Assembly (NCBI GenBank): GCA_951406725.2
Contig: OX597815.1
Location: 94,984,001 to 95,048,000 of the forward strand
DNA: 64,000 nt
Source of the DNA: Octopus vulgaris
Taxonomy: Eukaryota
Direction: 5' to 3'
Part shown: piece by piece, positions 6,308 through 38,600 of the stretch
Layout: every line of letters begins with the position of its first letter
Position numbering within the stretch: position 1 is the first letter of the stretch
The notes under the pieces: model-generated
Told to the model about the DNA's origin: nothing
Databases searched by the model: none
Seen by the model: only the letters and a program-made list of their open reading frames with translations
Position numbers and translations under genes: made by a program

Positions 6308-6531
6308 GTTTGGAAAAGAGGATGAATAGTTATTTGTTTGTACAAAGAGGGCAGAATGGTTTCCCTTTATCATCGGGAAATGATCTTGATAAAAGTTTCC
6401 AAGCTAAAGGAAATTGTTTATTTGAGTCTTTAAATGCCAAATTAGTTTACTAACACCTGTATACAGGTCTTAATAAACTAATTTGGTATCTCAAAGGCTA
6501 ATAAACAACTATTTATCCTCTTTTCCAAACC
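6308..6531. repeat. Old, interrupted fold-back palindrome next to (TA)n
   Basis: GTTTGGAAAAGAGGATGAATAGTT.. (6308) is inverted at 6500-6531; inner arms 6414-6461 and 6462-6509 centre on ACCTGTATACAGGT. Confidence 0.7.
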
Positions 6532-6945
6532 TACACTAGTCAACACCTATAAAGAACGTGTTTACAGGTGTTTACATTGGAAAAATTACTCTTTCAGCTA
6601 TTTCAAATAATATCTTTCACCTAATATTATCTGCTACTTAATTTTATTCTTACTTCTCATACTTCCTATTCTTTTCTTTATCTTTTCTTTCCATCTATCA
6701 TTTATTCTCTATTTGCTTATACCACCATTTCTCCTTTAATTCTCTTTCTCTCTTCTTTCTTTTCTTATGTCGCCCTGTGACGTCAAATTTCTTAACGGTA
6801 GTTTTTTTTAATAATTACTAGTGTTCCCTATACAACTTAGCTTTCCATAGGTTATATGTGTGTATGTATATGCATGTAAATATTTATATATGTGCATGTG
6901 TGTATTTATATGTATACATATGTATGAAAATATATATGTATATGC

Positions 6946-18883: not shown

Positions 18884-19060
18884 AATCCTTTCTACTTTAT
18901 GCACAAGGCCTGAAATGTGGGTGAAGGGGCCAGTCGATTACACAGCTGGTACTTGATTTATCGACCCCGAAAAGATAAAATGCAAAGTCGATATCTGCCT
19001 TTCATCCTTTTGGGGTCGATAAATCAAGTACCAGTTGTGTACTGTAGTCGATCTAATCGA
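18884..19060. mobile_element. SINE family B fragment folded back into a palindrome
   Basis: ACACAGCTGGTACTTGATTTATCGACCCC.. (18940) is inverted as ..GGGGTCGATAAATCAAGTACCAGTTGTGT (19040). Confidence 0.8.
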
Positions 19061-20976: not shown

Positions 20977-22669
20977 GGCCACTGGATAGCTTTAAATAAA
21001 TTGTGTGTCGGTGTGTGTGGATATGCTTGTGCGCGAGTATGTGAGTATGTATCGGTGTGTGTGTCATTATTCATATATATGTATTATGCATTTCCTTCTA
21101 TGAACGTTTATTGTATTTTTGCATGTTCATTCATATGTGTACATTTATATACCTGCAAATTGTATGACTCGAATAGATTCACTTCACTTCATCATGGTGA
21201 CAAAATTTATTCTACTTTGCAAATGACACTATCACTGTCGAATATTCCTTGTATCGAATAAATATATAGACACACCTATGTAATTGATTTACATTATGTA
21301 TTTTACTGATCACATAGATGATCTATCGATTTTAAAGTAAGCGCAAGATCACAAATGTGTGTTGGGGATGTGATATTGATGATATTTTAACTTTGGTATT
21401 TGGTCGGTCCATTACATAACGACCCTACAACAGATGGAGGGTAAAGTTGTTTTTAATAGAATTTGAACATTTGAAATCAGAAGATGAAAAGCATCACATT
21501 TAGATATCACAAATCATTTCGTCAACTGATTCTAATATCTTATATGAAAATCTAAGGTTGTATTTTCATTAGCTTTTAAACTTAAGTGGTTCAATATCGA
21601 ATATAAGCATTGTTCTTTTTAATAAATTTTCTGAGAATGTATCATCAATTCTGATGGAAGAATGATGAAGGTAGACAACGCCATCTAATAAAATACAAAA
21701 TAAATATGTGACCCTTGCAATGACAAAAGCATTACAAATTTTAAAAAGAGATAAATTTCCAATTGTAGCTTGAGAAGAGGAGCAATGGGGCTTGAGGAAA
21801 TAATAAAAAAAGAAATAATAAAAAAAGAAAAAAAAAAGGAAAAGGAAAAAGAATCGATAAAAAAAAGGCAATTATATCAGCCGCAAGAACAGGTTAACAT
21901 CCAATGAAATATGGTTTCTTAAGATTATTTCAATTGGGCTGTCATACTCTTTCGAAGCAATAAATTTGGGGTGCTTTTTTTTGTTAATCATTTGATACAA
22001 AGTGTCACACAGGGAAGCTGAAAATCATTGCATGTATTAATTTTTAATCATTGAGTAAATCGAGATAATCTCAACAATAGCAATTTACAACAACAGCAGT
22101 AACAATAATGGCGTGGAAAGCGATAACAGCAACAACAAATTTGCACTGACTTCAAAAGTGAGAACGTGGATGTAATTGACGATATCTCCATGTCAAATAC
22201 AAGTACATCGCATTCTCTGCTGTTCCCAGTTAGCACGCCCTTTATTTTGTCAGACGAATACATACACACACACAAACACTCTACTATTACCACCACCACC
22301 ACCACAACCACTACTACTACTTGTTTCGTCACCTCTTCGCATCTCAGCTCGATTCACAAACACTACACACCCTTCTTTTCTTACCCACTTCCAAACTTAA
22401 CCTTTAACTACCCATAAATATCTCTGAATCTGTCAATTCATCTGATCACTGACCCATCCCGTCTATTCAACACACTTCAAAATTCCTACAATACCTACAA
22501 ACATTTTGGCGCTTCAATTCAGCTGGAAGCTGAATTGAAGCGCTTTAGAAACAGCTGGGTAGGTGACTGAAACAATGATACCAGGCTTGTCCTTCCTCAT
22601 TCCACGTACAATTAAGATTTGATATCTCAGGTCCCCAGGTTTATATGCCCTCCGCGGTAGAGTCGGCAA

Positions 22670-23607: not shown

Positions 23608-24637
23608 ATAATACATGGGAAGTCTTTCAATGAATTTTATCACAGGTTTTATCTGGAGAATTAAGAGTAGTATCGGGCTGAATAACAATTTGCTTTAATA
23701 TCCACCTAAATTCAATGGTATTTCAGTACATCGATAAAGAATATCAGCCAGTCTTAAAACTTAACGAAGAATAACTATAAAAAGAGCATAAACATCATAA
23801 CAGTATTGAATATGGTTATTGGTGTATCTTTCGATTGCACTGATATGCTAGATGCAGTTGGAAATATCCATTAGCATCAATAAGATAACGTACTACTTTA
23901 AAATATCAATTAATGATATTTTATTGTCTCTATAAAATATTATGACTCACATTAAAATTCATAATTTTTTTCATATTATAATTATAACAGTTTTTAAAAA
24001 TAATTTCTGTTTCGATCTTGTGCCGATTGCAAGAGCTAAATATGCTAAATTATTTGCAATCATATTTTTAAGGTAATTTGACAGACTTCGAATTAAAATT
24101 CTCATTTTCAAGCTGATTTTTATATTTCCCAGGTTGTACAAAGTGTTTTATTTTATGTGTCACTAATTTTCGAAGCGTGCTTTTTTTTAACACGTTATCG
24201 TTTGCCTTAATTTAAGAAACTGTCTGGAGATTTGCAAAAGAATTTCTTGAAAATTAGGTCATTAAGTTGTGTAACTGAATTTTCCGCATATACATCTGAT
24301 GAGAAAAGTTCAGTCAATTGGCTATTCTATTTAACTTGACATTAATTTAAGCAAGTATTTTTATGCTCTTATATAACATTACTTCAGCTAAGAATAATGC
24401 GCATCATCTTACAGGCATATCTTCTCTCTTCTCTTGCAAATGATACCCACAAGCAATTCTATAAATATAATTCAAAATTATACTTTCTTACTTTTACTGT
24501 AGTCAAATGGTCAGAATTCAATTAGGAGCATTAAAAGTATTATAGATGTAACAGAAATGTGAGACAATAATTGATTAAAAATGTCGAGAACATACTCTGG
24601 AAGCAATAACTAAACAAATACTTTAGAGTGTATTTTG

Positions 24638-24681
24638 CATCAATTAAGTTAACTTTGAATTCAAAGTTAACTTAATTGATG
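24638..24681. repeat. 44-bp perfect spacerless palindrome
   Basis: CATCAATTAAGTTAACTTTGAA|TTCAAAGTTAACTTAATTGATG. Confidence 0.95.
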
Positions 24682-25049
24682 TAAAAAGCAAAAAAAATAT
24701 AACTAGTACAAATTACAAGCGCTCAAGTTCTAATTGATTTCTTGTAAAGAAAGGCCAGGGTTTTCACCATTGCTTTTATTTCCCAGTAGTTATTAATTTT
24801 CCTTCTCACGACATATATCCATTGAATCATTTGTTATATGTTGGTTTCGTACGTTCAGTATTTTAGCACAACTTTAGTTTAGCTCTTGTACTGTTGTATA
24901 ATTTCCAATAGTCTAAGTACCGATAAACAGATCCATGCATAAATATACTTATATATTCAACCATATATATTCAGTAACGATGCCCTGATAAACGGATGAA
25001 TCTCAACATAGTACAGAAATTTCTTGTATACTAAAATAAAATCACTAAA

Positions 25050-28030: not shown

Positions 28031-28374
28031 GGGCACAAACAAAAAGAACGCAGCTTGAATAACGGACAGTCAACAACCATTGAAAAGGTTGCCAGAGGCA
28101 ACAAAAAATTTTAGGAAAATAAATAAGTAAATAAGTAAATTTTAACGGGAAGTATTGATTCTTAAAGGCACTAAAAGAGAATGACTGTCCCCAGGCACAA
28201 CAGAATATACTTCAACACACGAACTCACATAAAGAATCATGCAAGGCAAATCCCAAAACGAAATACACACACACACACACATATATATATACACATATAT
28301 CTGTGTATGTGTGCGTGTGTGCGTATGAAACTAGCATTTATAAATATATAAACATTTACATATAAGTATATGTA

Positions 28375-28416
<42 letters not shown>

Positions 28417-28424
<8 letters not shown>

Positions 28425-28942
28425 TATTGGTGAATTGAAGAAATGGAGCTGAACGAAGATTGAACAGAAATCGTTTTATTTCACGTGTTTTATTACACGT
28501 GTTTCGAAAGGCACAATTTACCAAAATCCGTGTTTCGAAAGGCACAATTTACCAAAATCCGATTGAATAATGGGACCATATTGTGTCTTTCTCTTCAGGA
28601 AGAAATAGGAAATCCGTTGGAAAAAAACAAAAACAGAACAGAGGCGGATTTCCTATTTCTTCCTGAAGAGAAAGACACAATATGGTCCCATTATTCAATC
28701 GGATTTTGGTAAATTGTGCCTTGTAGAATGAAACAAAACGATTTCTGTTCAATCTTCGTTCAGCTCCATTTCTTCAATTCACCGAATAATATTTTAATTT
28801 CAATTATCCGCACCAACGCACGGTTGCAACACCATCTGGTTGTACCTCCAACCGTGCTGATTACTGGTGTGATTTTTGCTACCAAGGTATCGGTTAAACT
28901 TTTGATTAATCTACTACAAGATTATTCATCTTTCTATTTCAC

Positions 28943-28946
<4 letters not shown>
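28417..28946. mobile_element. HHR palindromic element 1 (inverted pLTR-like arms, 28-nt spacer, 3' tail, between (TA)n tracts)
   Basis: 28417-28616 is inverted at 28645-28796; CTGAAGA at 28663 (+) and 28598 (-); GAAAC-ACGT-GTA on the minus strand at 28505-28494; 31-bp tandem duplication 28498-28559. Confidence 0.85.
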
Positions 28947-29008
<62 letters not shown>

Positions 29009-29150
29009 AGAGAATGGTCACTATGTGGCTCATTCTAGCACTAGAAAATCCAAAGGTTTCAACCACAAAAATACATGTTTCCCATGAAAGTCAGTACGAT
29101 TGTTAGCTCACACGAACAGGGCAAATAAAAAATAACAAAAATACAGATTA

Positions 29151-29232
29151 TTTTGGGACAATTGTTTCGCTATTAATGAATTAAATGTAATTTTTACTTA
29201 CAAAAAACCGACTTGTAGCTCCTCAGCCAAAA
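29151..29232 (-). ncRNA. Type I hammerhead ribozyme, canonical core
   Basis: TTTTGG-CTGAGGA-GCTA..(43 nt)..TAGC-GAAAC-AATT-GTC-CCAAAA. Confidence 0.85.
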
Positions 29233-29278
29233 CTATCTGGATGAAATCCACTCAATTGAGTGGATTTCATCCAGATAG

Positions 29279-29360
29279 TTTTAGCTGAGGAGCTACAAGT
29301 CGGTTTTTTGTAAGTAAAAATTACATTTAATTCATTAATAGCGAAACAATTGTCCCAAAA
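29279..29360 (+). ncRNA. Type I hammerhead ribozyme, canonical core, one stem I mismatch
   Basis: TTTTAG-CTGAGGA-GCTA..TAGC-GAAAC-AATT-GTC-CCAAAA. Confidence 0.85.
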
Positions 29361-29638
29361 TAATCTGTATTTTTGTTATTTTTTATTTGCCCTGTTCGTG
29401 TGAGCTAACAATCGTACTGACTTTCATGGGAAACATGTATTTTTGTGGTTGAAACCTTTTGGATTTTCTAGTGCTAGAATGAGCCACATAGTGACCATTC
29501 TCTTATATTTATTTTTATATAAAATATTGTAATATATTATAAAATATTATAATAATCCAGGTTTCTCGAAGCACTAGGCCACTTGGTGTTGAATAGATAT
29601 ACTATTAAATTAGTATCTAATTCTCTCACCCTTATTAA

Positions 29639-29685
<47 letters not shown>

Positions 29686-29732
29686 AATATATATGCATAT
29701 ATATGTATATGTATGTATATGCATATATATAG

Positions 29733-31060
29733 GCATGCCGAGAAACGGGGTTACTTTGAACAGTTTTAGACTTCTTATTGCAATAATTTCATAACCTTAT
29801 TTTCAAGCTTAACTAAATTTGACTATGTTAGGAGGACTAAATAGGTAAACTGATATATGAAAGTGAAATAAGTAGCAGTCAATATATGGTTAATTTTTTT
29901 TATATAATTGTCGCTGTTCAAAGTAACCCCTGATTTTGGGTTGAACAGTAATGTTCTTTTATTAACAAATACAAAAGAAAAGTCAACGAACAGCTTTAAG
30001 TATTATAGCACTAAAGAAAATGTCACGCAGTTATCAGTAAGTCATATTTTATATTCCCCATTCTTGTTCAAGATCAGGAAATCGATAGAAACCCCTGTTG
30101 TTTAGCGGAATCTCTTGTTTTCCTTTCTACCACATCTTCCCAGTCGTAGGCGAGTCTATCCTCTTTCAGTGGCCACCTCCACCCTACCTTTATGCATTTT
30201 GTTAATGATGACACAAGTGCTTCATTACTTCCGGTTGAGATCACTTGACCGGAAATGTTTGCTCTTCACACCTCACAATGACAATGTTTCCAACAAACCT
30301 ACTTTTTCTTTCTGTGTTTTCTGCTCTTGCCGTGCCTGAATTACCGGAGTGCCTGTCACATTCATTCATAGAAACATCACTATGCACAGAGTTTAGCCCT
30401 TCATCATGCAAATTCTCTTGTTCTTTTTCTCCGTGCTTCTCTATAACTGTTGATGAACTCGAGGCCATCATTTCACTACCAGAAGCACTGATGTCCTCAG
30501 TACTTATACTTGTGTTAGGGGGTAACGTTCAACCTCTCTTGTCTCTTCTCATCCAACCCTCTGATTGACTTTAGCATTCCCAACACAACATCCGAAACTC
30601 TTACATTGATGACTTCATCGCCTTCTTCGTTCATTTCACGGTCTGGTAGCTGATCCAAAACTTTGTCTGGATAAAAAGGATGAATTCCACATTACATGAA
30701 CCCCCTTTCCAGATTCTTGGTGTGAGGGACACTACCAGGAAAGAGAGCAGCATGCAGCTGTGTGAGCAGAGCAGGAAAAGCATCTTTAGTTAAGGACTTT
30801 GAATTCTTCCTGTCGTAAGCCTTCCAATCATTTAAGATTCTTCTCCAACTTTTTTTGAAGAGGCCCATAGAATGCCACGTCAAGTGGTTGAAGAATATGT
30901 ATGGAACTGGGTGGTAGCAGCTTGCTTACTGCAGGAAACAGCGATCGGGGTTATTTTGAACGGCGTCATGCTATACAAGTTTTTACAAATATACCAAAGT
31001 TATAAAAACACTTAAATAGAAAATTATTAGCAAGTTATATGAACATCATACTTTAACAAA
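29733..31060 (-). mobile_element. Decayed pogo/Tigger-like DNA transposon
   Basis: LPPSSIHILQPLDVAFYG-KKSWRRIL..W, F..LL..L, GF..CGIHPF (DDE_1-type C-terminus); repeated subterminal motif GGGGTTA(C/T)TTTGAAC at 29747, 29915 (inverted) and 30947. Confidence 0.8.
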
Positions 31061-31189
31061 AGCTTTTATCTTTTATGCAAGAAGTGCTTTATCTACTGAC
31101 ATATGTATTCATATCTTGCAAAAATGTTTGTACTGCCTCACCGGCGAACGCACTACCTAGGGATATTTTTTGGAAGACCAGTAGTCGCC

Positions 31190-31385
31190 CACGCATACCA
31201 GCCTTCCCTCCCCATGCCTCCGATGTTATCCAAGTGAAAAGCAAAAGCCGATACAGCCTGGTACCAGCCAATAGAGCTTAGCAACTCATTTCTACAGCTA
31301 AGTGAAGTGGAGCAATGTGAAATAAAGTGTATTGCTCAAGAACAAAACACACAACCCGGTCTATCTACTGAGCCATGCGCCTTAA
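31190..31385 (-). mobile_element. Degenerate SINE family C
   Basis: Minus strand TGTTCTTGAGCAATACACTTTATTTCACATTGCTCC matches 43838-43875. Confidence 0.55.
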
Positions 31386-31507
31386 CATATATGTATATAT
31401 TTATACATATATGCATATATATATATATGTGTGTGTGTATATATATATGTGTGTATATATACATACATGCATATATATATATATGTATATATATACATAT
31501 ATGCATA

Positions 31508-31554
<47 letters not shown>

Positions 31555-31939
31555 TACATACACACACAGACGCATATATATATATATACATGGAGAGGGA
31601 GATAGAAGTAAAAAGAATGATTGGTGTATCTATATATGTAAATTCAAACCAATTTATTAAAACGCAACTGTGTATTTTACTCATTAACTGCAATGTGAAA
31701 GCTCTGCACACATTTTTCACAGCTCCTTAATTAAATGCGAAAAACGTTATTCAGTTTTAAATTTTAATGAACGCAGGCTGTTTTTTATCAGTAATGATAT
31801 GAAATGTTGCATTAATTTAAGCGTAATAGACAGTAATTTCTGGAAGTGAAATACTTTCGCCATTCCCACAAGCATGAAATCAACTACATAATACATGCAA
31901 ATATATACATGCACATTGGAATTAATAACAAAATTTTCA

Positions 31940-33130
31940 TCTGATATAGGCATGGAGTTTGGCCCAATATGAATGTTAATATTTGGTTATAGATCGAGGA
32001 AAGTCAGTCCCCCAAACCCAAAACCCATGCATTAACGGGCTCTTTATCTATCCCATTCCACACAAAGAATATTAGAAGTACCTAGGCATAGACAGAAATG
32101 TATAATATGAAGCTACTCTGAATAAAGATAGAGTGACTCGAGAATATTACACCAAACTTAGGAAAAGATGGCAGTTGAAACTCTCCTCTTATAGCGAAGC
32201 AATATCCCACAGTGCTTTTGCAGTACCAGTGCAGATCCCAATATTTGGAATAATCGATTGGTCTCTAGAGGAAATCCACTCCATAGTTATTAAAACCCGC
32301 AAAATCCTGACAACAACTGGGGACTACCACAGAAACATTGATGTTGACAGAAGAAATGAATGTAGTGGCCTGAGATCAGTGCAGACGGCCTTCGAATGCC
32401 GTATGGTATCACCCAAGCAGCACTTGCTAAACAACAACAACAAAACCATTCTCTTAGACACAAAACCATTACATCACAGCACACTTTGAAGGCTGTGCGT
32501 TTGCAATCCAGGAACAGGAGATTGCCACAATGTACCTGGTGAAACCCCAAGGTGCAACCGCATGTGTAGGTTATGTCATGTTTCTGTGGAAGACATCACG
32601 CTTGTGATTAGCAGCTGTCCTAAAATGTCGTCATAGTACTACCTCCCTATGCGGCACGATGTTGTTGCTAAAACAACTTACAATGCCATCCGCAAAAAAG
32701 ACTGTCCTGAAATAAACTTAAAATCCCTCGTATGGAATACATTTATTAACACCAACTCAAGGAATACTGGTGGAATATTCCCATCAAAACTTCTGTCAAA
32801 TGTAAACATAACAGGTTGGATATTGTTATTTTTGGGGGACAGAGGGGAACCTTTGCCCCAGCATAGAGGTCAGCTGCCCTGCAGATATAAAAATCTCTGA
32901 GGGTATCTATGGACAACAGCTTCGAAACCTCCAGCTTCCATATCCAGATTATGAATTGATATTCACACCATTTTAAGTGGAAAACTAGGTTTTGTTAGTA
33001 AATGCTTAAAGTAGAATCCAGATTAAGTGGGATTTTCTGAAGAGAAATCAACCGGCTAATTCGTACATTACAAGTGCAATCTGTGAGTGGAAAAGTAAAA
33101 ATAGGCAAGACTTTTCTCAAGTTCCAAGTG
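31940..33130 (+). mobile_element. Decayed Dong/R4-like retrotransposon with internal deletions
   Basis: DIGMEFG, KYLGI, FAVPV..PIFGIIDW, AIQEQEIAT, CRLC...EDI..V.S.CPKM..YLPMRHDVVAK. Confidence 0.85.
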
Positions 33131-33236
33131 TGAATTTGTCTGTGTTAACAACATCCCAAAGATGGAACCTTGTATCTTTGTTAGCAACCGGCTTCCTCCT
33201 CAGTGGAAGATTTATAATTATTAAAAAATAGAAGTG

Positions 33237-33446
33237 ACATACATACATACGTACATACATACATACATACATACATACATACATACATACATACATACAC
33301 ACACACACATACATACATACATACATACATACATACATACATACACATATACATACATACATAGATACATACATACATACATACATATATACATACGTAC
33401 ATACATACATACGTACATACATACATACATATATATATACATACAT
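33237..33446. repeat. (TACA)n microsatellite
   Basis: Directly visible. Confidence 0.95.
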
Positions 33447-33935
33447 GTAGTTATATTTAAGAAATATACGAGAAAAATTCCTGTTTTCCCCCAGATTAAA
33501 GTTTGCACTTAGAAGTGCTCAAGAAATTCAGACGTGAGGCAAAAGATAACTATATAAGTGAAGATAATTCTGTCCACAAACAATGATCCAACTCGCTTTC
33601 ATCAATAGAATTGACATAGAAAAATCACAAGAAACACATACTTAATTGTTATACAGAATATATACAGCACAAAGATATGTAAAAAAAAAATATAGATATA
33701 TTAAAAATACATAAACATATACATACAGAAATATATAGGGTAACTGATACATTAAAAATATACAGATGTGAACATTGATACATAGATATTAATATATATA
33801 TATATATATATATCACAATCAAGGAATGGCCATAATAGGCCATTCACCCACTAGAAATAACAGCCAAAGCTTCAACCGCAAAATAACATTAATTCCGCAA
33901 ACCAGGAGAAAATTAAAAAACATTTACCCTGTAAT

Positions 33936-34038
33936 TTCTTATACGATGCACCGTTTCATCTATTGTTTAATGGTAAACTAACCTGATTAAATTAAATCAA
34001 GCCAATCTTCCATAGGCCGATAGATTCGTCAGTAAGAA
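33936..34038 (-). ncRNA. Type I hammerhead ribozyme, canonical core
   Basis: Mirror copy of 34352-34454. Confidence 0.87.
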
Positions 34039-34351
34039 CAGCCAGATCCGAGCAGATATTATCACGAGGCACCTCTATCCCTGCCTCGGCAATATCTGAC
34101 CTAAAATTTTCAAATCATCGCACTCGCGCCAAATTTATCCAAATTTATGGTGGCAAATAAATTCTACGAAAGTTTTTGCCACCCTATATTGATTAATTAT
34201 GAATTTTCTGGTTAATTCCGTAATGGAATCGGCGGCTTATATTTGCTGCCGATAAATTTGGCGCGAGTGCGATGATTTGAAAATTTTAGGTCAGATATTG
34301 CCGAGGCAGGGATAGAGGTGCCTCGTGATAATATCTGCTCGGATCTGGCTG

Positions 34352-34454
34352 TTCTTACTGACGAATCTATCGGCCTATGGAAGATTGGCTTGATTTAATT
34401 TAATCAGGTTAGTTTACCATTAAACAATAGATGAAACGGTGCATCGTATAAGAA
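34352..34454 (+). ncRNA. Type I hammerhead ribozyme, canonical core, extended stem II
   Basis: TTCTTA-CTGACGA-ATCTAT..(56 nt)..ATAGAT-GAAAC-GGTGCATC-GTA-TAAGAA. Confidence 0.88.
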
Positions 34455-34676
34455 ATTACAGGGTAAATGTTTTTTTAATTTTCTCCTGGTTTGCGGAATT
34501 AATGTTATTTTGCGGTTGAAGCTTTGGCTGTTATTTCTAGTGGGTGAATGGCCTATTATGGCCATTCCTTGATTGTGATGTTGAAGTTATAAATGGTCTA
34601 TGACTATTTAATTTTTTTCCCACTAGGCCGCTGGTGGCAAATAAATTCTACGAAATTTTTTGCCACCCTATATTGA

Positions 34677-34725
<49 letters not shown>

Positions 34726-35600: not shown

Positions 35601-38600
35601 AATTGCCGGAATCTGATTCACATTAGGATTGCAAGTTTCAACTGCTCTGCCAGTGTAGTCAGGTCTAAAATAGTGTACTCTATCGGTCCTTGTGTGTATA
35701 ATTGCTTGAAATTGAATGTTAGATTTTTTAATTGATTCTATTATAGATCCTAAAATATTTGGTACTCCTCTGCCTTCTACCTTCAAATTAAATTCTTACT
35801 TTATTTATTCTTTAAGATTCTAAAATCAAATTTCCCACTACATCACAAGTACCATCTCATATTTAATAAATCAACAGTGAAATTTTCTTATTCGACTATG
35901 CCTAATTTAGGAAGAGTTAAGGGGCACTACTTTTCATTCTGTGACTGAGCGATAGGCGTGTGAATAAATACCAAAAACTTCAGAAATCGGCAGTGCTGAA
36001 AATCTTAATAATATATAATGTGAATTGGATATAACGACAGCAGTTTTGAATAAAATTCTATGCAGAAAGGGGAGGAATATAATGTTTCAAGGCTGCCACT
36101 TTGTCCAAGAGAAAATCATTTTACTTTTTCAACTAAACAGAAAGAATTATTGAAATCTACGGTCATATCAATTGCTAATGCTAATCACTATGGAATTCAT
36201 CTATCAAATAAGTTAATCGGTTGTGATCTGCTGGAATTATATTAACGTGTGGCAGCGAAAATCATTTATACACCCATCTACTCTGGGTAAACTTTGCGTG
36301 CAAAATAAAAAAGAAAAAAAGAGAAAGAATGAAGTTCTGTGCGAGTGTGTATGTGAGAGGAGTGATAATGTTCATTGGTGAGGGTAAAGGTGCGATAGCA
36401 GCTAGGGTGGAGAATTAACGGGGTTGGAGCATGAAAGGAAGGATTTGGGAAGTAATAAACTGGTGAAATATAGAAATAAACGAAGTACGAAATTAGTTTG
36501 ATGGTGACTTAGAAGTTTGCTTCGTGTTCCCGTTGCTTGCCCCCCGGGGACTTTATGTAATATGTCCAACTAGAGAACGCGAAAATATCACTAAAAAACA
36601 GCCAATTTTATAATAAACAAAACACGTCTAAAACCATAGACGTTATTACCACTTACATATATATGCAAATAACGATAGGAAATTTATATACGCTATCAAC
36701 ATTATGATGTGATCATCTATCATTATTTGATTTCAGTTTAATATTTCAATTGAATGATGATACATAATAAATTTGGACAATGTAATTTCCATTTTCTTCT
36801 ATTTACACGCGCACGCGCACATGCACACACATACACACAGATACGCACACACAAGCACCCACGCACATATACGTATATATATATATATACATATACATAT
36901 TATTTTTAGATAGGGAGCGACATATAGAGTGACTGAAAAGAAATCGAAATTCCATTTTCTAAATGCAATTTTAAACTTTTATGTTTTACGTGAAGAATAT
37001 TTATAATATATTTTCCTTAACAGTAGAAAAGTTTGCCGATACACATATTTAGCATTGTATTTATTAAATTTGTAGAAAATATCATTAAGATATTCCTATA
37101 ATAATACCTCTTTCAATACAACTTCTATCTATAAATGATTTTCCTGCGCAGATAGTTACAGGCATCACAATAGAGTTGGTTGATGGGTAATGATTGTGAA
37201 AAGACAATAGAATAGAAAACCGTTAAGCATATTACAGTTATATTTACAAAATTTAGATAGAAAAAGCTTATCGCTTGAGTTAATATATCATAACGTTCCT
37301 TAGATTTAATGAGGCGACATCTAGTTTTCATTATGTGTCTAACAATTGGATGCCATAGTCTACTGTAATAAATAAAATTATTATTTAATCAGGCTTAAAT
37401 GATACAATATACACTATCGTTTAAAGGTAGTTCAATAAATTTTATTTACAAACTGCTATCATTTTCTATCATGTTTGCGGTTTTCCTCGTGATGTCTGTG
37501 TTAAATATGAATGCAACACTTTATATGAACAAAGACATAAAACAACTATATTTAATATTGATCGTAATATGGTCAAATGAAAGTACTTTTTTTTTTAGCA
37601 ATATAATATAATTTACAGGAGAATAGAGAATTAACTAAAACATTTATTGGAGATTAGTGCAGGTATTAGTAGTCAGATCAAAGCAGGAAATACACTTTAG
37701 TAATATAAGATAAAAGGAGTGTATAACGAAAAATCACAAATCTAATACAGCATATTCATCTTTATTTACTTTTGTCGTAGCACTTCAATCTGTAAGATAT
37801 GAATTCTACTTTTCCCCAACATTACAGGATATTACACATATCTTCACCGAAATCTACAGAAGTAGACTTACTAACTTCCCAAACTTTGAGGCCATATCGT
37901 TGGAAATGTTTTTGTGATTTGTAAGCTTGTACTATTTACACTTTTATATTCATGATAGGGACTTCTAAAGTGAGTTGTAGCTTTCAGTTGACCTTTCATT
38001 TCTTGAATCAAAGGGAGTCCAATGAATTTCTGTATTTTACAATTTCTGATTTCCGACGTTTCATTCGCGATTTTCCTTTTGTGGTAAGAATAGCTACAAT
38101 CTCCAAAGATTCTATCTGACATCGATTTAAATACATCCATACTTGTATAGAATATACGCAACACCAATGACTATCAAATATTCTCTGAATAACATCAACG
38201 GCATCACAAAATAAAATCAAGTTACTACAAAATATCAGATTTTCCGACAGATGATGCATATGTTTAGTGCACTGAAAATTATATTACAGCTTCCTTAGGT
38301 TACATATTTTTTGTGAATAAGGATGAATTAATTGATTTTATCGACAAATACTTGAATACTTATTTCATCGATTGCAGAAGGGAAATCCTTCAATGCTCTG
38401 ATGTTTCTTTCAGTTATGATCAACATATCGAATTCTACCATATTTATAAGTCTACACATATTCTTACCAGTACTTGCCTGTTATCTTATTTTATCGGAAA
38501 GAATAAAAGGCGGTAAGATTCGAATTCAGAAAATGCAGGGATTTATATAATATAAAGAATTTTTCCCAGTGTTCAACCGATAATATGATTCCAACGTTGT

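Follow-up and report, generated by a model that had tools for sequence, protein, structure and literature searches.

Three fold-back elements between TA repeats

Why should three dissimilar sequences within 6.3 kb of the Octopus vulgaris genome each fold back on themselves between (TA)n tracts, and do they belong to one system? We addressed this question in a window of 64,000 nt (assembly GCA_951406725.2, contig OX597815.1, positions 94,984,001 to 95,048,000, forward strand; all coordinates below are positions in this window), for which a first-pass annotation had proposed a palindromic retrozyme system, that is, non-coding elements with hammerhead ribozymes in both arms of a palindrome. Three head-to-head fold-backs with (TA)n on both sides are present as it had claimed, at 28417-28946, 29009-29643 and 33812-34684; the palindromic stem III words that it quoted are found in the sequence, and the window copies contain no open reading frame (ORF). 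We refer to these elements as E1, E2 and E3, and to their genome-wide families as F1, F2 and F3. The three are mutually unrelated or only distantly related in sequence. The explanation that we consider highly probable is that they are three independent insertions into (TA)n, E1 being the 3' end, truncated and inverted, of a Hydra-like Penelope-like element (PLE) that encodes a protein, and E2 and E3 being protein-free tandem hammerhead repeats that were likely inserted by PLE-type enzymes. E1, E2 and E3 share a target, not a system. The broader wording of the annotation, small ribozyme elements or extreme PLE truncations, holds: E1 is a PLE truncated to an extreme degree, and the other two resemble retrozymes.

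E1 is the end of an autonomous Hydra-like PLE

Counting copies in the source genome, a check that the annotation had suggested, makes each element a member of an abundant family, and some F1 copies are joined to an ORF for reverse transcriptase (RT) and endonuclease (EN). In the 2.8-Gb assembly, the exact F1 motif has 1,868 matches genome-wide and its reversed control has none. Six of 30 F1 loci share the full 1.5 kb of upstream sequence, and all six, fetched at 9.9 kb, contain the same RT/EN ORF end. One array has a tandem period of 3,624 nt, and a near-full locus (L091) reads (TA)n, inverted pseudo-long terminal repeat (pLTR), partial pLTR with tail, leader, ORF, 3' region, pLTR with tail, and (TA)n; in full-length copies the tail is followed directly by a leader of ~47 nt and then by the ORF start. 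E1 is the last ~300 nt of this Hydra-like PLE together with an inverted copy, and is 5'-truncated. Its homologues are ordinary pLTRs of autonomous PLEs, an outcome that the annotation had named as speaking against its proposal; among the small share of F2 and F3 copies examined, no such parent was found for E2 or E3.

Within E1, the inverted arm (28417-28648, minus strand) is the pLTR, i.e. the 3' end, of the PLE and stops at the family's short end; it follows a TA-rich tract, the target on the left (28339-28418). Its hammerhead has the core CTGAAGA at 28598 and stem III ACACGTGT, with stem I disrupted by a 14-nt duplication (28473-28504); a 31-nt duplication lies at 28498-28561. The forward arm (28645-28796, plus strand), again pLTR, carries CTGAAGA at 28663; compared with 47 of 50 relatives it lacks 11 nt, a deletion that has removed GAAAC and stem III. 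The tail of ~150 nt (28797-28946, plus strand) ends in a (TA)n tract common to E1 and E2 (28946-29008). Across F1, the 3' core of the pLTR hammerhead is intact in 47/50 alignments, and the insertions are flanked by TA.

The F1 ORF encodes 899 amino acids (aa) with a YRDD RT motif, a DKT motif present as SDKTRN, and a C-terminal EN domain (VYQC..YVG) with CNLC..E..N..CPH, that is CxxC..E..N..CxH, and without CCHH. A protein search gave 11,961 first-look RT candidates genome-wide, 144 of which were scored, and 20 of these 144 lie in 899-aa open frames. The Atlas search with the F1 protein returned PLE-like clusters at 0.95-0.98, some members of which carry HTH_animal/GIY-YIG/RVT_1, and a PDB sequence search of the ORF returned nothing meaningful. 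Loci with the published Hydra-1_Obim hammerhead motif (240 genome matches, versus 3 for the control) align with the F1 ORF at ~30-45% in pairwise comparison, and one of them (L226) has CxC at the linker position. From pairwise similarity and motifs, the E1 parent appears to be a Hydra-like PLE and a putative member of Hydra.

As far as the available text of PMC8557442 describes the C-terminal EN+ PLEs of the Hydra clade, which include Hydra-1_Obim of Octopus bimaculoides, F1 shares with them a single ORF, DKT, RT, a GIY-YIG-type EN without CCHH and with CxxC/CxH around E and N, a hammerhead close to the 3' end and insertion into (TA)n, as well as partial tandems, a tail and a 5'-truncated copy in inverted orientation. 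However, the E1 parent has RWL instead of the RWK motif, lacks the CxCX5C linker, has a long Ser/Asn-rich linker, and carries a tail of ~150 nt rather than 30-40 bp; Hydra-1_Obim, in turn, has a 2,507-bp unit as opposed to 3.6 kb, and another hammerhead. The motifs of F1-F3 do not occur in the accessible part of the PMC8557442 supplement. With the intact Hydra-like ORF, a Hydra-type protein could be tested for the first time, and so could trans-mobilisation.

Two groups of Hydra-like elements were noted in the genome. One (L176, L168-L175) is a young, apparently intact PLE family whose subfamilies share as little as 77% RT identity; the Asn/Ser-rich linker that separates its RT from its EN is expanding, reminiscent of the N-rich inserts of rotifer PLEs. 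The second group (L179-L207) is older and decayed, with a ~1-kb 3' region and a long-stem-II hammerhead.

E2 and E3 belong to ORF-less tandem families

The exact F2 motif has 2,384 genome matches, and a pattern common to F2 and F3 has 2,288, of which the first 100 listed include 96 F3; the reversed control gave 0 in both cases. Scaled from the first 100 listed matches, rough estimates are ~1,300 F1, 740 F2 and 820 F3 insertions. The tandem unit is 535 nt in F2 and 484-493 nt in F3, and each holds one type I hammerhead in a single polarity. These units are ORF-less, low in GC and dispersed, range from monomers to multimers, and have no layout of long terminal repeat (LTR), primer-binding site and polypurine tract. 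In both families the long end runs straight into the following unit at its position 1, and the dispersed arrays built in this way reach 13 units. F2 and F3 have in common a motif of ~60 nt that lies directly upstream of the short end, and their tail ends are similar; outside the hammerhead core, neither resembles F1.

The inverted arm of E2 (29009-29255, minus strand) covers positions ~442 to 147 of the 535-nt unit and has an intact type I hammerhead (29226-29157) with stem III ACAATTGT. Its forward arm (29256-29554, plus strand) has a hammerhead at 29285-29354 with a G>A mismatch in stem I, and is followed by a tail of ~90 nt (29555-29643, plus strand), which stops at the family's long end (unit position 535), and by a TA-rich tract (29644-29731). 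E3, flanked by (TA)n at 33790-33811 and 34682-34723, begins with an inverted arm (33812-34139, minus strand; unit positions 380 to 51) bearing an intact hammerhead (34032-33942). An 8-nt junction insert and a 53-nt partial upstream unit (positions 433-485), i.e. a partial tandem, follow at 34140-34200 (plus strand), and then one full unit of F3 (34201-34684, plus strand; 484 nt, for a family unit of ~485 nt). The full unit has an intact hammerhead (34358-34448) with a 6-bp stem I, a stem II with a 68-nt hairpin and stem III ACGGTGCATCGT; its short end is at 34579 and its tail at 34580-34684 (105 nt). The details of the first-pass description therefore need some amendment: a hammerhead had been claimed for each arm and is intact in three of six (both arms of E3 and the inverted arm of E2), not in the forward arm of E2 or in either arm of E1; tails of 105-150 nt apply to E1 and E3, that of E2 being below the range; and the common arm-plus-arm architecture does not describe E3, with its insert, partial unit and full unit.

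By their genomic features E2 and E3 can be classed as non-LTR retrozymes, for which cleavage and circular RNA are predicted. Such retrozymes, as described in the available parts of PMC7229834 and bioRxiv 10.64898/2026.07.22.740005, are likewise AT-rich tandem repeats that lack an ORF and have a single type I hammerhead in each unit; they occur as monomers to multimers in thousands of copies, and coexist with autonomous PLEs. Units of 485 and 535 nt are above the 170-400 nt of PMC7229834 and within the 51-972 bp of bioRxiv 10.64898/2026.07.22.740005. E2 and E3 differ in a stem II with a 50-70-nt hairpin and in an explicit PLE signature of two ends and inversion, the word 'inverted' having 0 occurrences in the accessible text of PMC7229834. 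Our literature searches listed no paper on octopus retrozymes, and we found none on these families, which supplements such as that of bioRxiv 10.64898/2026.07.22.740005 could nevertheless contain.

A search with the F1 ORF by tblastn against 101 overlapping F2/F3 loci, which is blind to non-Hydra partners, gave one match, a separate old fragment. A parent search with a pattern free of F2/F3 letters gave one match, an F3 variant, and 11 mostly single-motif loci with long flanks contained no F2/F3 parent. Descent of F2 and F3 from an extinct or unseen pLTR is possible, and compatible with the explanation that we prefer.

Two further features of these units may be mentioned. TTTGGCGCG occurs in both F2 and F3 units ~50 nt past the unit junction (region 34248-34258 of the window; L007:1402-1412), and resembles the consensus of an E2F site, a candidate internal promoter. 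A hammerhead family related to F3 (59-62%) lies beside or inside Hydra-like elements at L195:2619-3135, L091:5134-5436, L223:2350-2925 and L219:806-1082.

Ends and junctions follow the PLE insertion pattern

After overlapping loci were merged by position, and segments <40 nt or <83% identity as well as insertions <150 nt were dropped, 29 F2 and 36 F3 insertions were available; these are top-scoring or first-listed copies, ~65 of the estimated 740 + 820. Head-to-head inversion is present in 19/29 F2 and 23/36 F3 insertions (42/65), leaving 23/65 without it, and tandem units occur within 14/29 and 24/36, respectively. Inversion points are scattered across the whole unit and differ in nearly each copy, and the junctions often show 2-4 nt of homology or a few added bases. 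The ends, on the other hand, are fixed. None of the 42 inverted insertions has two tailed ends; all 19 inverted F2 insertions have exactly one long end, with the other end mostly at 428-447, and 19 of the 23 inverted F3 insertions pair a short end at 377-385 with a long end at 478-485. The short/long rule was also obeyed by 8 of 10 inverted F3 insertions found with a tail-independent pattern.

This combination is familiar. According to the accessible portions of the literature, an inverted 5' copy, partial tandems, a tail at one end and (TA)n targeting are common in PLE insertions (PMC8557442; PMC3846280); a purified PLE protein cuts and extends both strands, starting at two internal sites that bound the tail, with uncut RNA as the main template in vitro (PMC11167929); and pLTRs suffice for mobilisation in trans (PMC3846280). 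Insertions of EN+ PLEs (PMC3846280; PMC11167929) thus resemble E1-E3 in their head-to-head repeats, one-end tail, microhomology junctions, two internal RT starts and AT-rich targets, and E1-E3 differ in tails of 90-150 nt and in target-site duplications that are unreadable in (TA)n. The mirror shape is an already described PLE insertion footprint, not a new system. What the families add is a countable picture of PLE integration (short end, tailed end, variable junction) that is common to an autonomous element and to ORF-less units. Retrozymes have been proposed to be non-autonomous PLE derivatives, in a study where pLTR homology to a co-resident autonomous PLE was found, in its available part, among the transposable-element matches of 21 of 57 families, not of all (bioRxiv 10.64898/2026.07.22.740005), and the short/tailed-end pattern supports the proposal that PLEs move retrozymes.

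No functional link is needed for the cluster, which the common (TA)n target explains. If insertions were uniformly distributed, ~0.06 triplets of F1, F2 and F3 within 6.3 kb would be expected genome-wide. In the listed part of contig C1, two cross-family pairs within 6.3 kb were observed versus 0.50 expected in total, both of them F1-F3 pairs (0.21 expected), with none for the other two pairings (0.19 and 0.10 expected). Adjacent insertions of different PLE-type families were found at L019, L091, L195, L222 and L223. Such a cluster is not common, but it agrees with a preference of all three families for (TA)n.

The predicted hammerhead has one polarity and is conserved across subfamilies

With a strict type I hammerhead descriptor (stem I and stem II of at least 4 each) we obtained three matches in the window, all in the E1-E3 elements, and 0 in each of 50 block shuffles. 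The Rfam search that the annotation had recommended gave no hammerhead model, probably because of the long stem II; its 92 matches at E<=5 were all sub-threshold hairpin or microsatellite noise. The unit's hammerhead is predicted, in one polarity. The sampled F3 copies span subfamilies that differ by ~10%. At the ten invariant core letters, 2 of 978 aligned letters deviate in F3, versus 1,773 of 45,056 (3.9%) elsewhere, and the free N7 position varies. The centre of stem III has changed from GC to AT in 16 of 91 F3 copies with the palindrome kept (8 copies are intermediates), and from ACGT to ATAT among PLE subfamilies with ~71% pLTR identity. Judged from these alignments, subfamilies have retained both the core and the palindrome of stem III, the latter through compensatory changes; related copies do not count as independent events.

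Type I hammerheads with a palindromic helix III act as dimers, as reported in PMC4209133; E1-E3 share the type I topology and short palindromic helix III with those described there, and differ in a much longer helix II and, in E3, a 12-nt near-palindromic stem III. The predicted energy of stem III is 0 to -0.2 kcal/mol alone and -6.4 to -17.5 kcal/mol as a homodimer. An older Hydra-like family of the genome has a long stem II and a palindromic stem III as well; therefore, this combination is a trait of local PLEs and does not single out E1-E3.

A possible route of insertion

The genomic copies, together with published in vitro work on a Poseidon PLE, suggest the following mechanism. A PLE RT/GIY-YIG protein would bind tandem or circular unit RNA, and both strands of a TA tract would be nicked. 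From each nick, cDNA would be primed at one of two fixed internal start sites, giving a short or a long end, so that the sequence between the two sites would be the tail. The two cDNAs would stop at variable points and be joined head to head, often by way of 2-4 nt of homology or with a few bases added, leaving (TA)n, an inverted arm without tail, a forward arm with tail, and (TA)n. F2 and F3 would thereby borrow the protein of some PLE. Since the dispersed arrays have their own PLE-type ends and inversions, the ORF-less multimer itself would be the template.

In tandem arrays, the self-complementary stem III is predicted to let two adjacent units cleave as a dimer, freeing unit-length RNA. 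In a fold-back copy, each strand's ribozyme would lie downstream of its own complement, and read-through RNA would form long double-stranded RNA (dsRNA) that is likely uncleaved; whole-element hairpins have predicted energies of -285, -455 and -673 kcal/mol, versus -7 to -27 for the single-arm ribozyme fold. As head-to-head arms mean that the complement is always transcribed first, fold-backs would be ribozyme-dead dsRNA. Hence they are likely dead-end products, and the tandem arrays are likely the source copies.

Weighing the explanations

Had the fold-back itself been the unit of a palindromic family of dedicated retrozymes, a viroid-type rod encoding working ribozymes in either polarity, and had the three neighbours formed one system, the near-perfect arms of the fold-backs (98-100% identity), the intact hammerheads in both E3 arms and a triplet within 6.3 kb, against the 0.06 expected, would be readily understood. 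However, the fold-back point differs in nearly every copy and 23 of the 65 sampled F2/F3 insertions have none, the repeating unit is a direct tandem whose single hammerhead has one polarity, which does not support the annotated encoding on both strands, E1 is a PLE end, and different PLE-type families also lie side by side at the five loci given above; we regard this proposal as highly improbable. A better case can be made for E2 and E3 as plain pLTRs of autonomous PLEs not yet found, with short tandems arising by internal deletion or local amplification, considering that end structure and target are the same as in E1, that only ~65 of the estimated insertions were sampled, and that the 11,961 RT candidates indicate a large PLE diversity. 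Yet this is improbable too, as dispersed arrays, up to 13 units long, pass from the long end directly to position 1 of a following unit, these arrays carry their own PLE-type ends and inversions, and no ORF-linked F2/F3 copy was seen, versus 6/30 F1 loci.

Perfect palindromes beside (TA)n are prone to assembly or long-read fold-back artefacts, but here the arms differ by substitutions and indels, family-specific short and long ends recur in dozens of loci on many contigs, and one contig of an independent DNA run contains an opposite-strand F2 joint, so that we attach a negligible probability to an artefact. Similarly, a miniature inverted-repeat or foldback DNA transposon inserted at TA would account for inverted repeats flanked by TA, but not for arms of variable length that meet head to head at the centre, for asymmetric ends of which only one has a tail, or for 5' truncations, tandem units and an RT-encoding parent of E1; it is hardly credible.

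Several observations weigh against the preferred explanation, i.e. three independent insertions made by PLE-type enzymes. F2 and F3 units show no similarity to the F1 PLE or to its diverged subfamilies (8 loci), nor to the 30 + 10 loci of the older Hydra-like family or the 20 loci examined, of 240 matches, of the Hydra-1_Obim-like family, and an autonomous partner was not found in the small share of copies examined. The CxCX5C Hydra linker is absent from the F1 ORF, which has a single Cys at the linker position, and a Pfam search of this ORF gave no RT or GIY-YIG match. Core conservation is not above background in F2 (12/446 versus 653/24,140) or F1 (5/508 versus 170/14,498), samples that are young and near-identical and whose copies are not independent. 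The single-arm hammerhead fold lies 2-4 kcal/mol above the minimum-energy fold. Most insertion loci are best matches to a tail-containing query, which favours one long end (and would favour two as well). Finally, 0 of 48 F2 5' ends lie at the predicted cut, the nearest being 13-14 nt off, and none was seen there by eye in F3. We rejected on this basis an insertion start at the ribozyme cut, and because no 5' end is found there, cleavage does not set the template 5' end, which agrees with uncut RNA being the main template in vitro (PMC11167929).

Candidate transcripts of F2 and F3

A bolder reading, which we hold to be doubtful, is that F2 and F3 are octopus retrozymes, young and uncatalogued, of which a few source arrays yield abundant circular RNAs of unit length. 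A Hydra-type PLE protein without sequence similarity to them would recognise the ~60-nt hairpin motif that they have in common, and would integrate them by starting at two fixed sites. If true, thousands of short/long-ended insertions would be direct genomic proof of retrozyme integration by PLE enzymes, the families and the intact 899-aa driver would together form a system ready for use in vitro, and long dsRNA would arise across the genome from the fold-back by-products. The octopus lineage is known for heavy A-to-I editing.

None of the sequencing runs listed is recorded as RNA. Contigs of runs only guessed to be RNA contain both F2 and F3 units and serve as a lead, although such contigs cannot show strand, ends or circles. 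In run X7, the F2 unit is covered by 10 contigs, versus 444 in the DNA run X3, and one 482-nt contig with a depth of 910 spans the F2 unit junction. The same joint is present in run X17 and in X3; therefore, the X7 contig does not show a circle. The F3 allele ratios of X7 differ from those of three other runs; X16 looks like DNA, and X18 covered half of F2 only. When X7, which is only guessed to be RNA, is aligned to L007:1354-1888, the F2 unit appears to be one closed loop of 535 nt, near-clonal and covered ~900-1,100 times, and it carries a change that the DNA run lacks.

Other features of the window

Degenerate ORF remnants at 32100-32900 (plus strand) contain a C-x2-C...RHD-type stretch, typical of the C-terminal part of non-LTR retrotransposons with a restriction-like endonuclease, and had no match in a Pfam search. 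Decayed short fragments resembling the Hydra-like PLE protein lie at 6309-6607 and 35745-35918, and other short palindromes at 18939-19041, 22509-22543 and 24633-24686.

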